Shown one piece after another: positions 1 through 36,191 of a DNA stretch of 36,478 nucleotides. Both the position numbers and the translations under genes were made by a program. The DNA is from Cercozoa sp. M6MM (Eukaryota; Protista; Endomyxa: Ascetosporea), in NCBI GenBank assembly GCA_040357565.1, contig JBDODJ010000115.1. One strand, given 5' to 3'. The notes beneath the pieces were generated by a model. The model did no database searches, was not told the DNA's origin, and saw only the letters and a list, made by a program, of their open reading frames with translations. Position 1 is the stretch's first letter; each line of letters starts with the position of its first letter.

Positions 1-512
1 GGAGCAGGGGGTAAAGCTGCAGTACCAAACGGCCACAGCACGTTGCGGCCCTTGAGACGCTGGTAGCCCGCCATAAACTCGGCCTTGCTGTGAAGGGGTA
101 AAGTGGTAAAAAGGGAGGTAAAGGGGGGAAGGGGTAAAGGTGCAAGTGTAACATGAGACATTGGAGAGTAGGGAATAGAAAGGGTAAAGGGAAGGTCAAT
201 ACGCCAGAGTGAAGGCATGGCCCACGTGCAGCTTGCCGTTCATGTACGGGTACGGGAACGTGCACATGTACTTGGGCCGGTCATCCGGCGTCGACTGCAC
301 AAACAAAAGGGAGTGGTGCCGCATCCTTAACAAAACAGAAAACGAAATTAGAGTTACCTCAAAAGCACGCGCCTCGTCCCAAAGGCTCTGAGCGAACTCT
401 TCGTGCGCCTTGAGCTGCCAAACACAGGTGACTTCCCCACTTTCTCCTATAATACTATGCTCGAGTCCCGCAGATCTACCTGGTCGCGGCGAGCGGTGTG
501 TTCGAGCTCCAT
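1..512 (-). CDS. LARS1: Cytosolic leucyl-tRNA synthetase, 5' part (continues off the left edge)
   Basis: Spliced translation MELEHTARRDQ|LKAHEEFAQSLWDEARAFE|STPDDRPKYMCTFPYPYMNGKLHVGHAFTLA|KAEFMAGYQRLKGRNVLWPFG contains the class I HIGH-type motif (PYPYMNGxLHxGH) of eukaryotic/archaeal LeuRS. GT-AG introns at 415-479, 295-357 and 88-202 restore the frame. Confidence 0.96.
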
Positions 513-831: not shown

Positions 832-1543
832 ATGAGGCGATTAATCGTTCTGGTGTTCTGTGTGTGCCTTGTTCTGGGCGTCAGTGACGTCGGTGCTCAC
901 GAACAGCATGCAGAGGATCAGGAGGAGCAGGAGGACCTGCGAGAGACATGGTTGGCAGCCGCTCTGCGTTCTCGCACTGACAGACGTGAGTTGGTTTCTC
1001 TTGTGAAACTCCACCTGTCTGTCTTTATTTGGACTGATCTGTGTGGTTACAGACCTGCCATGGACGCGGACGGAGATGGAGCTGCTCGTGGGCAGTGGGC
1101 GCGACCTGGCGGCCGATGAGGTGCGCAACCTGTACAACTGTCTGCTGAGCAACGGTCCCTTCCTGATCGCGCACTTTGCGGGCTTCACGAGCGACATCTG
1201 CGAGGTGGCCGAGCAGCTCGTCGGGTACCGCGCGCGTGTCAAGCAGTACGCGCGTAGTCGCGGCGCCTGGTTCACCGAGCAGTTCCTGCGTCTGCGCGAC
1301 GTTGTCAAGTACGGCGGCGACCTCGATTTCGACGCTGTCTACGCCAAGCAGTGGCGCCGCCACCGATGCCACGACGCCAACGTTGATCACGTCGATGAGA
1401 ACGGCGACGACTTTTGCACCGAGCGAGCCGTCTGTGCTGCTGTTCTCAGCTCTGCCCTGCGGTCCAACGGCGGCTACAATGCCGCACTCGACCCTGACAA
1501 TACCCAGAACGGCAACAAAGAGCCCGTCAAAACCGACATGTAG
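832..1543 (+). CDS. Secreted protein (signal peptide, acidic linker) with a C-terminal domain resembling all-alpha bacterial polymorphic-toxin/CdiA-CT domains
   Basis: Exon 1 MRRLIVLVFCVCLVLGVSDVGA is a classic signal peptide. One phase-1 intron (gtgagt at ~986 to ttacag at ~1052) joins it to ORF 1043..1543. Motifs EVRNLY, YRARVKQYAR, RDVVKYG and VLSSALRSN..YNAAL. The gene model is solid; the domain call is recalled similarity only. Confidence 0.7.
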
Positions 1544-1714: not shown

Positions 1715-3029
1715 ATGCCTGTGACGCTCACTAACGTCCTCTGGAAGAAGGAAGAAGATGAAAGGTGGCACTTTTTTGTGCGCTGTGGTTTCGCGTTATT
1801 TTGTTTTTGAGTGCAGTTTGATGGAGTTCGCGTGGAACTACCAAAAATCCAGGCAAGGGAAAGTAGGCGGCAAGCCCATGTTTCGAGCGGCGGCCAGAGA
1901 AGGTACTGAGTTCTCTCGGGGGACAGTCTTGTTTTTGTTGCCTTGGTATTGTCGGTTTGGCTCCAGGTGTTTGCGGCACGCGGTCGTGGGCGGCGATTCG
2001 CGCGCGCTGGCGTGACAAACTTTCTTTCAGTGAGTTAGTGAGTAACACAGCAGGGGTACCATATGTATACTATGTATATATATATACATGTGCACAATGT
2101 AGAGTTTCCGGCCTGGTGTCGCAAGCGTCGAAAGTCGTTGTCAAAGGACTCGCCTCAACAAGCTGAACGGCCGCGCAGTTCTCTCGCCGCTTTGAACACA
2201 CCTCGAAAGGGCAGTCCCGCCAGTCTGCGCAAAAAGAAAAAGAAACGTCGTCACACGGAACCCATGGTACCACCCCCTCGTTACCTCTGGTACTTTACCC
2301 CCCCCCCCCCCGCGCCTGCAGTTCCGTAAGCCCGCGCGTAAGCTGAGCGTTGCGGCCACAGCGCCAGACAAGCGAGAACAGTCGCCGACGAAGAAACCGA
2401 CCGTCGACGTGAGACGGCAGATCTCAGTGTCGTCGTCGTCGTCGCAGCTGTCGCTGTCGGAGGCGCGTGTTGGTACCAGCATCAACAGTGCCGAGCCCAA
2501 GGTCAGTTTTGCTTTTACCCTTCTCTACTCCTTTGTAACCATTTCTTTTTTGCAGGTCATTGCTTTGGAGAAACCTGAAAGAGTGAGAAGGAAAGCGCCG
2601 ACTCCAAAAGCAACTCCAGCACAAGCTGTACTGCCTGCCCAAGTACAGCCTACCCGAGTACAGCCTACCCAAGTCACTCAAGTACAAGCCACTCAAGTGC
2701 AAGTCACTCAAGTGCAAGCCACTCAAGTACAAGCAACTCAAGCACAAGTCACACGAGCACAAGCGACTCAAGGACCCACACCCGAGGAGCAAGCCGCACA
2801 GCTCGTTGCACTGGCACGCGAGCTCGCGCTGACGTGTCGCGTCTCGCCGCAGCGCGCCTTCCTGGCACTGCTGCGGCACTATCGGCCTCAGTCAGAAAGT
2901 TCCCTGGAGCACGTTCGGCATGTTCTGCTTCTTCACGTGGCCACTGGCGGCCGTCTATACGCATACGACTCCGCCACTGTGCCCTGCACTGACCTCGCGA
3001 GTCAGCATGCCAGTCGCTCCGAGTCATGA
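1715..3029 (+). CDS. Myb-domain protein, Rap1/TERF2IP-like (N-terminal Myb, basic/low-complexity middle, possible RCT-like C-terminus)
   Basis: Five GT-AG introns give MPVTLTNVLWKKEEDESLMEFAWNYQKSRQGKVGGKPMFRAAAREGVCGTRSWAAIRARWRDKLSF (W.xEED..L ... RSW..IR.RW...L, a Myb pattern of the Rap1 type), a KKKKKRR NLS, QVTQVQAT repeats and a helical C-terminus. The start could lie further upstream (ttag|ATG). Confidence 0.62.
2640..2770 (+). repeat. 15-bp coding tandem repeat (CAAGTCACTCAAGTG-like; QVTQV/QATQV)
   Basis: About 8 degenerate 15-nt units visible directly in the last exon of the Myb gene. Confidence 0.85.
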
Positions 3030-11096: not shown

Positions 11097-13070
11097 CTAC
11101 CTTGACCGAGCCTCAGAGCCGGAACCCTTGAGTGTGTCGGAACTGAGAGTATCGCAGTCGTCGTCAGGGGCAGGTGCCACCTGGCACTGCCAGAGCTTGA
11201 CGTCGCCGTCCTCACTGGCACTCAACAGAACACGACGCTCGTCATGCCACTGCAAATCGACGATGGCGCCACTGTGCGCCTGCAGTTCGTCCACCGGCTG
11301 TCCCGTGGCGAGTGACCACAAGATCATCTAACACAGCACACACACATGGTATACTCGGATAAATTATGGGAAAAGACTATGTGTGTGTGTAGTAGAAAGT
11401 ACTCTGCCATCAAAGGTGCCAAGAACGAGCATGCCAATCGACTCGAGAACACCCAGTGCTGTCACAGGTCGCCTGGCACCGTCAAAGAAATGCTCCTGCA
11501 GGCGCGGTCGCGGCACTTTCTCCGGAGTGAAAGCTCCTGCCGCTGAGACCAGACAAGTCCACGCGGCGGCAGAGCAATCCTCTCCACCACTGTCGTTGCA
11601 TTCTCTCATTGAGTAAAACAAACAAACAAAAGCTGCCAAGACAATGTACCTGAAAAGCAAGCGCTGTCGTTTGGCCCACCTGACAGCTCGAACGGCTCCA
11701 ACGTGTCCACACAACTCTCCGACCACCTCGATTTCGCTTAGGCCTCCTGGCGAGCACAAGGGCGGCCTCAGCGAAACAATCACTCTGTTGTCAGGAGAAT
11801 ACCAAAATTAACAACATAAAGTCAACACAATGGTAGCAAAAGCGAGAGTACACTTTGTCCGTGCTGGTGCCGAGAAAAAGGCGCGATCCGATCGGATCGA
11901 AGGAAGAGCACAGGACCTGACAATCGTCGGCAATGACGGCTCTTTCTGTCCTTCGTATTTGTGTCAAGTCGGCGTTCAGCAGTGCCACAAAGCCCTTGAC
12001 TGAGACGCAGGAGACGCACTCGCGCACTTCGTCAAAAAAGACAGACTCGACGGCATGTCGCCAGAATCGCGTGCTGTGCAGCAGCGTGAAGCCTTTCTGC
12101 GCGTTCTGTTTCTCATTTTCCTGTCCTGTTTTCTGCCGATTTTTCTGTTCGTTTGGTCGTTGGGACGGTTCGCGTCTGTGTCGCTCTTGCAGTTCGTGTT
12201 TCGACAGACGGCCGTCTTGCGTTGTTATTCTGTAGGTGTTGATGCTGCCGTTGCTGGTGCCGACAACGAGGTCGTCCTGCTGCCAACACACGCAGGTGGG
12301 CACACTGTCGACGGCGAGACTGTGCGCGAGCTGCCACCGGTAGTTGCGAAAGCGCCACAGTGACACGTTGCCCTCGCTGCCTCGGCGACATGTCACGACC
12401 AGTCGGTCGCGACGCGAGTCGGCATCGAGTCTCCACGCCGTTCCTGTTATCGACTGCGACTGCCTCAACATCGCGATCGGGTGACTCGGCAGCGAGCCGT
12501 ACGCACCGTTGGCACACACGTTGAATCGCGGACAGTTTTCTGCAGGCACAGCTTGTTTCTCAAAGCCAAAGGACTCAAAACTCAAAACAAAAACAAAAAC
12601 AAACTGACTACCTGGAACACGAAGGAACTGTAGCAAGGCGCGTGATCGACAAAGTTCTGGTGCCGCAATCACCGACGAAATGAACATATCGAGGCCCTGC
12701 CGCCGTTTCTCAACAAAAGCACTGTCGTGACTGACTCGGAACCACGTTTTTGGCGGCAACGGCGGCACGTGACTGCCCATTCGCGCGAGCGCTTTCGCCT
12801 GCTCACACCCCAGTAAACTACCACATCAAAAATAATCAGACAGAGACAGGTGATGAATCGCACGAGTGCATCAAATTCACTGAAGCGGTGTGAGATCGAC
12901 CACGAAAAACGCTGGTTCCATGTCACCACAACAACGAACCTGCAAGGCACACACAAAAGCTGAACTGGAAAGTCATCTTCAAAAACAGCGAACACTGTTG
13001 CGGCCTTGTCGCGCCGCGCGACTGCTACGTGCGCCTTTAGCGGAAGAGACTCCCGCAAGTCGACGCTCAT
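11097..13070 (-). CDS. PX-domain + WD40-repeat protein
   Basis: PX motifs SWSISHRFSEFDAL, PPLPPKTWF and FVEKRRQGLDMFI. WD40 repeats GHVGAVRAVRW, SGGEDCSAAAW and AHSGAIVDLQW...LLSASEDGDVKLW. Several GT-AG introns. Confidence 0.85.
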
Positions 13071-33663: not shown

Positions 33664-35905
33664 ATGGTGCTAGGGCAACAGCAGCGCGTCCAACTGTACT
33701 TGAAATCTGAGAGATGATATGCACGTGTGCATTTTGATTTTGTGTTTTTTGGCAACGTTTGTGTGCTTGTGGGCAGCAACGCCGCCGTGCTATGGCACCT
33801 GCGAGATAGTGGATACTTGGAGTCGTTCGAAGCGCTGCAGCGCGAGTCGGGTGTCTCACTTGCCGATCACGAAGCGCAGGTGTGTTTTTTTTTCTCACAA
33901 ATAAAGTCTAAGCTATGAGATCTGCCAGAGTACCGTTGCTCATGTCCAGGTGGCTCGACTACTGGAACGAAAATGGAACAGCGTCGTGCGATTGCAGCGA
34001 AAAGTTTTGGACCTCCAACGGCAACTGAAGAGTACAAATACGAATACCCCTTGTTTTCTCCATCCAGCTTTGGTATGTTGCAGGTGCCACGGAGGCACTC
34101 GAAAGTGCATCGGCGCTGCCGGCACAAACAGTTAATGGAGCGACTGCACTGACACATGCGCAGTCGATTCGATTACCACGCGCGTCACTGCGCACGCTGA
34201 GTGGTCACCGCGGTGCTATCAACTGCCTCAGTGTGCATCCGTCGCTGCCGCTGCTGCTGTCAGCTGGTGTGTTGCTTCACTCCATGTTACCCCTTCCCTC
34301 ACACCCCCACTTTCTTATACCTTGCTCTTATTCTCCCTGTTTTTTCTACACTCTGTTATAAGACTTTATATTTTACACTCGCTTTATAACCTTGCCATGT
34401 ACCCCCCCCCCCTCAGGCGAGGACGGCTCAGTAAGATTGTGGGACACTGCGACCGGTGCGTGCGAAACAGCGGCGCGTGCGCACAGCGACAGCGCCTCAT
34501 GCGCCGTGTTTGTTCCTTCCGGCAGCACGACGTCGCTTAGCGAGTCCGAGGGACCGCTTCTGGTGGCCACGGGCAGTGTCGATATGTCAGTCAAGTTGTG
34601 GGACTTCAGAGGTATGCCCCTCACCCCCTGTATGTGATGCGTGTCATGTACCCTCTGTGTGAAGGACCGAAACCGAGGTGTCTGCGTACACTGCGCGGCC
34701 ACGAGCACAGCGTATCGCAGTTGGCGCTGCTGCCGAGCGATCCGGGTACGCTGCTGTCGTGCTCGCGCGATGGCACGCTCAAGTTCTGGCAGGTGCAGAG
34801 GTGCGTCTTCCTGTACTTTGCCCTCCCCTCCCCGTTACCCCTTCCATCTGGACAGTGGAATGTGTATCCGCACCCTGACGCCGTTCGCATCGGTGACAGA
34901 CGGCAGCAGTGGCAACAAGCAGTGGGTGCGCTGTGTGGCCACTCTGTACGGCCAGGTTAATGCGAGCGACTCGATCGCACTCGCCTCTGGCAGGTACTGA
35001 GTGTCTTCACAATCAACATACCCCTTTACCCTTTACCCCTTTACCCTCTTTGTCCCCTGTTGGTAGTGGCCACGTGGCAGTACTGCGCAACGACACTTCG
35101 CACGAGGACCGGCTGCTGCGAGTGCACGAGCACGTGATCGAGGCTGTCGCATGGGCGCCGTTGCGAGCCGAGATTCTCCTGCGGCACCGCGAGGATATTC
35201 TCGCATTGTTGGGTATACCCTCATTACCCCATCACTTCTCTGTTACCCCTTTAATTTTACTCTTAACCCCCTGCTCCCACGCAGAAAAAGACGCGAGCGA
35301 AGAGAATTTGCAGCGAGAAAGCGAAATTGTCGAAACTTTTGTGCAGCGTCGTTTGGATGCATTAAAGCTTGGTACACTCGCACTTACCCCGCGCGGCCCC
35401 CACCCCACCCCACCTACCTTACCCCTTTGGGCAGAGAAAGAGTCCGACTTTGACGACAGCGACGAGTACCGGCTGAGGCGTTTTCTGTGCACGGCCTCGC
35501 GTGACTGCAGTGTCCGACTGGTCGATGTACACGCCGGCAGTGTCGTCGAACTCGGGCGGCACGACAACTGGGCGCGCGCCCTGTGCTGGCACCGCGACGG
35601 TCGCGTTCTCTTCTCTTGCGGCGATGACAAAAGCATCCGCGCCTTTGACGTCCTCAGGAGGCAGTGCGTTTCTCCCTGTGCACGTGCTTTTAACCGCTCA
35701 ACAAGAAACGCCCTGTGTGTGACAGGGAAGTACGAAAGATCACGCGAGCGCACGAAGCCTTTGTTTGTATGTTCAAATATCCTTCCTTTCGATCTCGGTG
35801 AAAGGTTGTTTACAAACCTTGGTGTGTGTAGCTGCCTTGGCCACTACGACGCGTCTCGTGTCGAGCGACTCTCGCGGACTCATTCACGTCTGGGACTCGC
35901 GTTAA
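33664..35905 (+). CDS. LIS1: LIS1 (LisH, coiled coil, WD40) dynein regulator, divergent; 11 introns
   Basis: MVLGQQQRVQLNAAVLWHLRDSGY...LLERKWNSVVRLQRKVLDLQ matches the LIS1 N-terminus. WD repeats LSGHRG, GEDGSVRLWD, LRGHEHSVS, SCSRDGTLKFW, HEHVIEAVAW, HDNWAR and SCGDDKSIR. Confidence 0.92.
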
Positions 35906-36191
35906 TTCCACAGCCACCGGCGCGGTACCGTCGACGTCGCGATCGCGCATCTCGTTTACGTTAGAGATTGTACGTTTGAAATTTAGTCAGTTCAGCAGCT
36001 TTTCGAACTGAAGCCTGCCGGAGGTTGCAAGAAATCGCTGTCGTGTGTCACTGCTGGCGCTCGAACAAGCAAATGACGTGCTGGCTTCAGCGAGCGACTC
36101 GGTCATCGGAACTTCCCCGCCTCTTTCTCTGTGATCTCGTCTTTCTGGTATGGTGCTCCAGCGATGGCGCAAGTACTCCCCCTCGCTGTGT

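Follow-up and report, generated by a model that had tools for sequence, protein, structure and literature searches.

Polymorphic toxin systems of bacteria (Rhs, LXG, MuF, ESX/WXG100, and CdiA-like) are the described systems closest to the gene reported here; in these systems, a homologous domain forms the C-terminal tip of the carrier and is followed by a small gene. In barnase and barstar, a signal-bearing, exported enzyme is encoded beside a small, acidic, cytoplasmic inhibitor that plugs its basic site. Toxin domains have also been transferred to eukaryotes, as exemplified by the tae/dae amidases. For amoeboid lineages, at least six toxin domains are recorded as having moved to eukaryotes in the accessible part of PMC3482391; the present gene resembles the known transfers in that a bacterial conflict domain is found in a eukaryote with eukaryotic gene structure and export, but its domain is not recognizable among the transferred toxins tabulated in that part of the paper.

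The CdiA-CT toxins of Escherichia coli 3006 (EC3006) and Klebsiella pneumoniae 342 (Kp342) (PDB 6CP8 and 6CP9) are likewise toxin tips, with a basic residue, a Tyr, and a Thr/Ser in the proposed active site; the accessible text of PMC9086364 describes both as BECR alpha/beta folds with a key or catalytic His and gives strands for each. A further system, likened to ours by description only, is PT6 (Nachmias et al., bioRxiv 10.1101/2021.10.19.465003), which the accessible part of the preprint presents as a short domain of environmental bacteria that is toxic in the periplasm and to yeast. PT6 is described there as fused to DUF4157 and absent from pathogens, whereas distant members of the present family occur in Ralstonia and in mycobacterial prophages; the accessible part of PMC13675652 adds nothing further on PT6. 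PT3, considered because of Ralstonia, was rejected, as it is described in the accessible text as ADP-ribosyltransferase-like.

Unlike the members of polymorphic toxin systems, many bacterial copies of our domain are short and signal bearing, and the amoeba copy has an intron and a Cys pair and stands without carrier or partner. Transfer of toxins to amoeboid eukaryotes is already known; what is new here, as far as our searches reach, is that the toxin-immunity pair is not in the catalogs and that its eukaryotic offshoot had not been described.

Results

Structure of the amoeba gene

The DNA analyzed (the window) is a stretch of 36,478 nucleotides of contig JBDODJ010000115.1 (assembly GCA_040357565.1) from Cercozoa sp. 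M6MM, an amphizoic amoeba of the Apofilosa (Rhizaria) according to the accessible part of PMC11069148; in the accessible main text of that paper, the wording "horizontal" or "lateral gene" is absent. The features considered are as follows.

1..512, minus strand: 5' exons of a cytosolic-type leucyl-tRNA synthetase (LeuRS), a head-to-head neighbor that is probably incidental
832..985, plus strand: exon 1, residues 1-51 and the first base of codon 52; the spliced product is the stored protein P0001
832..897, plus strand: predicted ER signal peptide, residues 1-22 (MRR, hydrophobic core at 4-15, likely cleavage after VGA)
913..936, plus strand: acidic stretch EDQEEQED, residues 28-35, within a 47-residue spacer (from the sequence)
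986..1052, plus strand: spliceosomal GT-AG intron, phase 1, 67 nt, in agreement with the NCBI model
1053..1543, plus strand: exon 2, including the stop codon (at 1543); GC3 0.81
1106..1486, plus strand: helical toxin-like domain, residues ~70-196 (AF2, HHalign, and conservation counts)
1199..1435, plus strand: Cys101 (1199-1201) and Cys179 (1433-1435), a clade-specific pair (from alignment rows)

From the ATG at 832 to the stop at 1543, the spliced frame encodes 214 amino acids that are letter-for-letter identical to P0001 (NCBI MHM6MM_003536, named hypothetical protein, Cercozoa sp. M6MM); without splicing, the frame from this ATG stops after 95 codons. The N-terminal hydrophobic stretch (residues 4-15) has a mean hydropathy of 3.69, and the cleavage site was placed by the -3/-1 rule rather than computed. 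Seven Cys residues are present, two in the signal and five in the domain, and the domain, which has a net charge of -4, contains EVRNLY, YR.RVK..AR, R...KYG...F, and VLSSALRSN..YN.AL, with GDLDF at the site of GP[ST]F. The intron, motifs, acidic stretch, and five domain Cys residues listed in a preliminary description of this DNA were all borne out, and its export signal is upheld by hydropathy.

Genomic context

LeuRS starts at an ATG at position 512 on the minus strand, 319 bp from the ATG at 832, and was recognized by its HVGH motif and by a weak Pfam tRNA-synt_1 match (E 0.0056) on the fragment. In run X1, possibly the source data of the assembly, an 1,880-bp contig joins LeuRS to the P0001 gene at a depth of 556, with flanks at 472 to 570. 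The preliminary description had suspected that the adjacency to LeuRS was a coincidence, and so it appears: at the one homologous locus that we read (L163), the gene lies head to head with an unrelated membrane-protein gene and there is no synthetase. The pairing with LeuRS is thus not shared by L163, where a poly-T leader and an AT-rich tail accompany a single-gene layout.

Could the gene be bacterial contamination, or the contig chimeric? The GC3 of exon 2 (0.81) is above that of the other long frames in the window (0.44 to 0.62; these are frames, not confirmed genes), and 0.6% of M6MM genes are flagged as possible contaminants in the accessible part of PMC11069148. Nevertheless, the intron is required to yield the protein, a LeuRS exon has a GC3 of 0.89 over 28 codons, the 1,880-bp contig joins LeuRS to the gene at flank-like depth, PX-domain and WD40 genes lie in the same window, and P0001 groups with a Pelomyxa protein, apart from all 64 bacterial rows of the tree (support 100/100). 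We consider contamination or chimerism extremely improbable: the gene has a spliceosomal intron and is linked to eukaryotic genes, as expected of a eukaryotic gene.

The PX-domain gene (window positions 11794-12825) and the WD40 gene (34897-35961) are ordinary eukaryotic neighbors. Downstream, at 2060-3029, lies an intron-bearing gene with a tandem VQATQ/VTQ low-complexity repeat; at a poly-C run at 2297, one contig has one extra C, so the assembly may carry a frameshift there.

Eukaryote-type homologs

A phmmer search of 1.84 billion representatives (cutoff, E 0.001 or better) yielded 24 proteins including P0001, of 113 to 350 amino acids; their aligned identity to P0001 ranges from 25 to 39%, and Pelomyxa schiedti is the source of one. 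We call these proteins eukaryote-type, although only 2 of the 24 carry a eukaryote name and one further contig (L163) merely looks eukaryotic. Rhizaria and Amoebozoa, at least, are represented in the clade, which is set apart by its own Cys pair and an RGS motif. The earlier idea of a toxin domain in this amoeba was correct as to homology; however, the case is not a one-off, since P0001 belongs to this clade of 24.

Both C101 and C179 are present in 23 of the 24 eukaryote-type rows and in none of the 96 bacterial rows, and from this pattern the two are likely to form a disulfide. A hydrophobic segment was found in 14 of the 15 eukaryote-type proteins that have at least 25 residues before the domain, and a C-terminal hydrophobic segment follows the domain in 6 of 24. 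Among 15 spacers compared, none is as acidic as that of P0001, with 6 D/E in 10 residues against 1 to 5 in the others; an inhibitory acidic propeptide, proposed in the preliminary description, is therefore not a family trait. From the eukaryote-type alignment, AF2 predicted an all-helical structure with good confidence (mean pLDDT, 87.5).

Relationship to a bacterial domain

A DNA pattern, KYG-x-x-[DN]-G-P-[ST]-F, devised partly from the alignment, was run on bacterial and archaeal genomes and hit at least 120 loci. Among the matches listed, 103 of 120 reached at least 25 bits with an HMM built from eukaryote-type proteins only; the N-terminal half of that HMM, which excludes the fished motif, scored at least 10 bits in 68 of the 103 and in 0 of the 17 others. 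HHalign aligned the eukaryote-type profile with the bacterial profile at 99.5% (E 4.1e-22, 123 columns) and P0001 alone with the bacterial profile at 91% (E 1.1e-6). Conversely, an HMM built from 96 bacterial rows only scored at least 20 bits for 22 of the 24 eukaryote-type proteins; P0001 was the weakest of the 24 at 15.4 bits, a value reached by 0 of 1,000 shuffles (best, 7.1). An AF2 model of the bacterial domain had the same seven helices as the eukaryote-type model; neither has a strand of three or more residues, and pLDDT exceeds 90 in most of the core.

P0001 shares R76, Y79, A104, R111, K115, R119, R133, D134, Y138, F144, S185, R188, S189, N190, and N194 with the bacterial proteins. 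Conservation in eukaryote-type and bacterial rows, respectively, is 22/24 and 95/96 for R76, 21/24 and 96/96 for Y79, 24/24 and 95/96 for R111, and 24/24 and 94/96 for R119. Neither a His nor a metal-ligand cluster occurs among the residues common to both groups, which are Arg, Tyr, one Asp (D134), and Ser/Thr-Asn.

The domain is widespread in bacteria. By motif-free search, 26 of the 301 genomes covered in the Corallococcus phylum and 4 of the 401 in the Thiotrichaceae phylum carry it (center genome counted in each), and the record titles of the homologs, among the matches listed, name 12 phyla in the tree plus Actinomycetota. Of 18 loci from a pattern scan of metagenomes, 1 was a true homolog; viral contigs gave none (0/5 loci, 0 matches, 0/10), word-seeded searches found few homologs, and tblastn of the amoeba and Pelomyxa domains against phages and plasmids gave chance matches only, including a chance-level DprA match that was rejected.

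No family in Pfam, NCBIfam, or PHROG matched the window domain, the 24 aligned eukaryote-type members, or two sets of 26 and 16 bacterial homologs. Sequence and profile searches of the PDB returned nothing better than E 0.4, and the ESM Atlas gave no usable feature match for P0001 or P0034. Fold searches with both models found no match at E 0.001, and no structure, CdiA-CT or otherwise, stood out clearly as the nearest; the best Z scores, 5.2 and 5.7, are at the level of common helical arrangements, and for these predicted models they indicate neither a new nor a different fold. No account of the domain was found in the literature searched, including motif searches of the accessible supplements of PMC3482391, PMC8213781, and PMC9424270; nameless domains are difficult to locate by text search.

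Bacterial carriers and export

The domain is the C-terminus of a 1,449-residue Rhs protein (P0028), where it follows the DPLG motif. It is also found at the C-terminal tip of a Bacillus LXG toxin (L123) and of a MuF capsid protein (L124), at the tip of mycobacterial ESX-linked prophage proteins (L122 and L127), one of which is annotated "polymorphic toxin" (a class described for ESX in the accessible part of PMC8092301), and at the tip of a 3,374-residue Ralstonia protein (L125) of the two-partner/CdiA-like kind, near a POTRA-type transporter. A small gene comes next after the LXG, MuF, ESX, and 3,374-residue tips. The listed carriers score 46 to 171 bits with the bacterial HMM and 5 to 55 bits with the eukaryote-only HMM (Rhs, 55; LXG, 23; ESX, 15; MuF, Ralstonia, and a Clostridium phage, 5 to 8); hence, the last three are distant tips that are linked through the bacterial profile (42 to 68 bits). 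At the family level, then, the domain is a tip on several unrelated trafficking carriers, as expected of a polymorphic toxin. The profile match and these tip contexts support the relationship, proposed earlier from sequence motifs, with the all-helical toxin tips of Rhs, LXG, MuF, and CdiA-like proteins, and at the level of sequence the toxin ancestry of the amoeba domain is supported. At the amoeba locus itself, only a signal and a spacer precede the domain and no partner gene lies in the window, so that it does not constitute a toxin system.

Short proteins with a hydrophobic N-terminus are frequent among the bacterial copies: they account for 41 of 60 complete genes, 15 of the 41 being lipobox-like, in a motif-fished set (the pattern matches listed) that is biased to one subfamily. 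Among the others, the upstream sequence was too short in 13 and a hydrophobic N-terminus was missing in 6. Given that so many bacterial homologs already carry a signal, the export signal may predate transfer. The proposal of a domesticated eukaryotic gene consequently stands as regards the intron, the export signal, and the lack of an immunity gene in the window, but the signal is not necessarily a eukaryotic invention.

Two bacterial forms deserve mention. In Bacteroidota (L005, L014, L021, L026, L061, and others), a signal peptide is followed by a LysM-like domain (NCBIfam PRK11198, E 1.8e-5, below the cutoff) and the helical domain with extra Cys residues; perhaps these forms represent a separate, bacterial domestication into a cell wall role. 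In Myxococcaceae (L011, L019, L080, and L133 to L148), the N-terminus is rich in Ser/Pro/Thr and Arg, there is no hydrophobic signal, and the coupling to the partner gene is tight.

A candidate immunity family

The bacterial domain is often followed by a gene for an acidic, Trp-rich protein of ~68 amino acids (NDFP...FDDWP; for example, L041:545-751). Among the matches listed, 92 loci have room for such a gene after the domain, and it is present in 47 of them (5 more loci had no room); 26 of the 47 were used to seed the partner HMM, and near-copies are numerous among the Corallococcus loci. The partner is missing behind the other 45, including 11/11 LysM-like and 11/16 lipobox-like loci. By form, it was present in 8/10 plain-signal, 5/16 lipobox-like, 0/11 LysM-like, 6/15 long, and 28/40 short signal-less loci. 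The partner gene is often ATGA coupled, and its product is mostly net negative, with no hydrophobic N-terminus or signal in any listed copy. Thirty partner proteins had no match in Pfam, NCBIfam, or PHROG, and the partner HMM had no match at E 10 in the window and none in L163. Other small genes, not of the partner family, lie behind the LXG, MuF, and ESX tips. At L030, L042, and L059, the partner frame runs on into unrelated downstream sequence.

Complex prediction for the L041 domain and its partner scored 0.75, compared with 0.01 for the best of three controls, with at least 68% contact agreement between runs and a partner pLDDT of 87; 51 of 78 solved complexes came up to this mark, as did 2 of 108 mismatched pairs and 7 of 44 blind neighbors. 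In the predicted complex, the DFP loop and FDD motif of the partner touch R59, Y62, R98, R102, and R117, which correspond to R76, Y79, K115, R119, and R133 of P0001. These predicted contact residues are among the most conserved in both groups and are kept in 21 to 24 of the 24 eukaryote-type rows. The model supports, but does not show, that the partner is an inhibitor that plugs an active site still present in the amoeba protein. The acidic ~68-residue family is likely to be a new immunity family, and the predicted Arg/Tyr patch is the candidate active site. The logic of barnase and barstar would fit loci such as L041; the fold is unrelated, and a nuclease role here is putative.

Discussion

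In the unrooted tree (88 rows, 113 columns; 64 of 96 deduplicated bacterial rows kept after thinning), the 24 eukaryote-type rows make up one side of a branch with 100/100 support. As for the sister of this clade, neither the long-carrier tips nor the Myxococcaceae forms were rejected (p-AU, 0.46 and 0.43). Transfer was probably from bacteria to eukaryotes, given the bacterial breadth of the domain and the toxin-immunity layout, and the P0001 gene was likely acquired from bacteria. For both Rhizaria and Amoebozoa to occur in the clade, the acquisition must be old and followed by losses, or the gene must have passed between eukaryotes.

We propose that the product of this intron-bearing gene, which is predicted to be secreted, has at its core a polymorphic-toxin domain that was likely acquired from bacteria and has kept its Arg/Tyr patch, the predicted active site. 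The protein would likely serve the amoeba as an antibacterial or digestive enzyme, with a phosphate-rich molecule, most likely RNA, as its substrate; as a whole, we give this reading an even chance of being correct. In bacteria, the acidic cytoplasmic partner would be the immunity protein, which implies that the ancestral target is present in the bacterial cytoplasm. A basic patch blocked by an acidic cytoplasmic inhibitor, even behind exported forms, would point to a phosphate-rich cytoplasmic substrate, most simply RNA, and the label "nuclease" for the family is a provisional one that rests on the Arg/Tyr/Ser-Thr patch and the acidic cytoplasmic partner. In the amoeba, the protein would enter the ER via its signal peptide, would be stabilized outside the cytosol by a C101-C179 disulfide, and would attack prey or competitors, either in the phagolysosome or extracellularly. 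Routing by the signal peptide into the ER would leave the amoeba without need of an immunity gene; ER import, the disulfide, and action outside the cytosol would together explain the loss of that gene. Several observations count against an antibacterial enzyme: P0001 is the weakest of its clade against the bacterial HMM, has GDLDF in place of the usual motif, and has an acidic domain (-4), the partner gene is missing behind 45 of 92 bacterial loci, and it is hard to see how a secreted nuclease would enter an intact bacterial cytoplasm.

Alternatively, the target may lie in the envelope, where export alone would bring the effector to it, the Arg patch binding or cleaving phosphate-bearing lipid II, undecaprenyl phosphate, a phospholipid, or teichoic acid. 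The export signals of 41 of 60 complete bacterial homologs, 15 of them lipobox-like, and the partnerless Bacteroidota forms (0/11) with a LysM-like peptidoglycan-binding domain are in keeping with such an effector, and there is a precedent in PT6, which is toxic to E. coli only in the periplasm and causes filamentation (accessible part of bioRxiv 10.1101/2021.10.19.465003), although PT6 is likened to the family by description alone. However, the partner is signal-less even behind exported forms (8/10 plain-signal loci), which argues for a danger in the cytoplasm, and we regard an envelope target as decidedly unlikely. It is also envisioned, and in our judgment unlikely to a slightly lesser degree, that P0001 is no longer a weapon at all but a lumenal or surface protein whose old patch binds or scavenges an anionic ligand in nutrient uptake, adhesion, or signaling. 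The single copy-like depth, the wide clade with N- or C-terminal anchors, and the divergent motif and acidic domain of P0001 are compatible with this idea; the C-terminal hydrophobic segment of 6 of the 24 proteins fits a membrane-tethered, nonweapon role, and inactive domestication has a precedent in teneurin GHH (accessible part of PMC3482391). Against it, the residues predicted to be covered by the partner are kept in 21 to 24 of 24 rows despite identities of 25 to 39%.

The preliminary description had instead placed the domain with the E. coli 3006 CdiA-CT tRNA nuclease, and a corresponding reading would make P0001 a member of the E. coli 3006/K. pneumoniae 342 group, cutting tRNA-Ile and functionally tied to LeuRS. 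There is a loose chemical likeness between the Lys-x2/3-Tyr, Arg, and Thr of those toxins (accessible part of PMC9086364) and R76-x2-Y79 and R188-[ST]189 of our family. Those toxins, however, are described in the same text as alpha/beta proteins with a key His, whereas our AF2 models consist of helices only, with no three- or four-stranded sheet, and no His column occurs in 60% of both groups, where only Arg, Tyr, and Ser/Thr are shared; moreover, L163, the one homologous locus read, adjoins a membrane-protein gene and not a synthetase. The assignment to the EC3006 group is accordingly not supported, and membership in this group is very improbable; a nuclease-like function is possible all the same.

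On the bacterial side, these results provide a toxin domain without a name, a cognate candidate immunity family, and a predicted active-site patch; on the eukaryotic side, they provide a clade that keeps the patch without the immunity gene. If the amoeba protein is active, it would represent a new enzyme class in the antibacterial or digestive kit of bacterivorous protists and a clean case of a toxin made safe without an antidote, through ER routing and disulfide dependence, and the bacterial partner would be a ready-made inhibitor for experiments. A more far-reaching scenario, which we consider conceivable but doubtful, starts from an uncatalogued toxin-immunity pair with a fold unlike solved structures, present in ~13 bacterial phyla and frequent in predatory myxobacteria. 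Phagotrophic protists would have acquired it early and in a single event, after which the toxin gained a disulfide and the immunity gene was lost; across Rhizaria, Amoebozoa, and further lineages, the protein would now work, secreted or in lysosomes, as an active antibacterial nuclease belonging to a new structural class.

Two further bacterial loci were noted. In one member of the Bryobacterales (L035), two domain-plus-partner modules lie in tandem. In a mycobacterial prophage (L122:1569-2098), two tandem DUF7161 genes lie behind the toxin; DUF7161 is accordingly a candidate for the immunity family of that subfamily.
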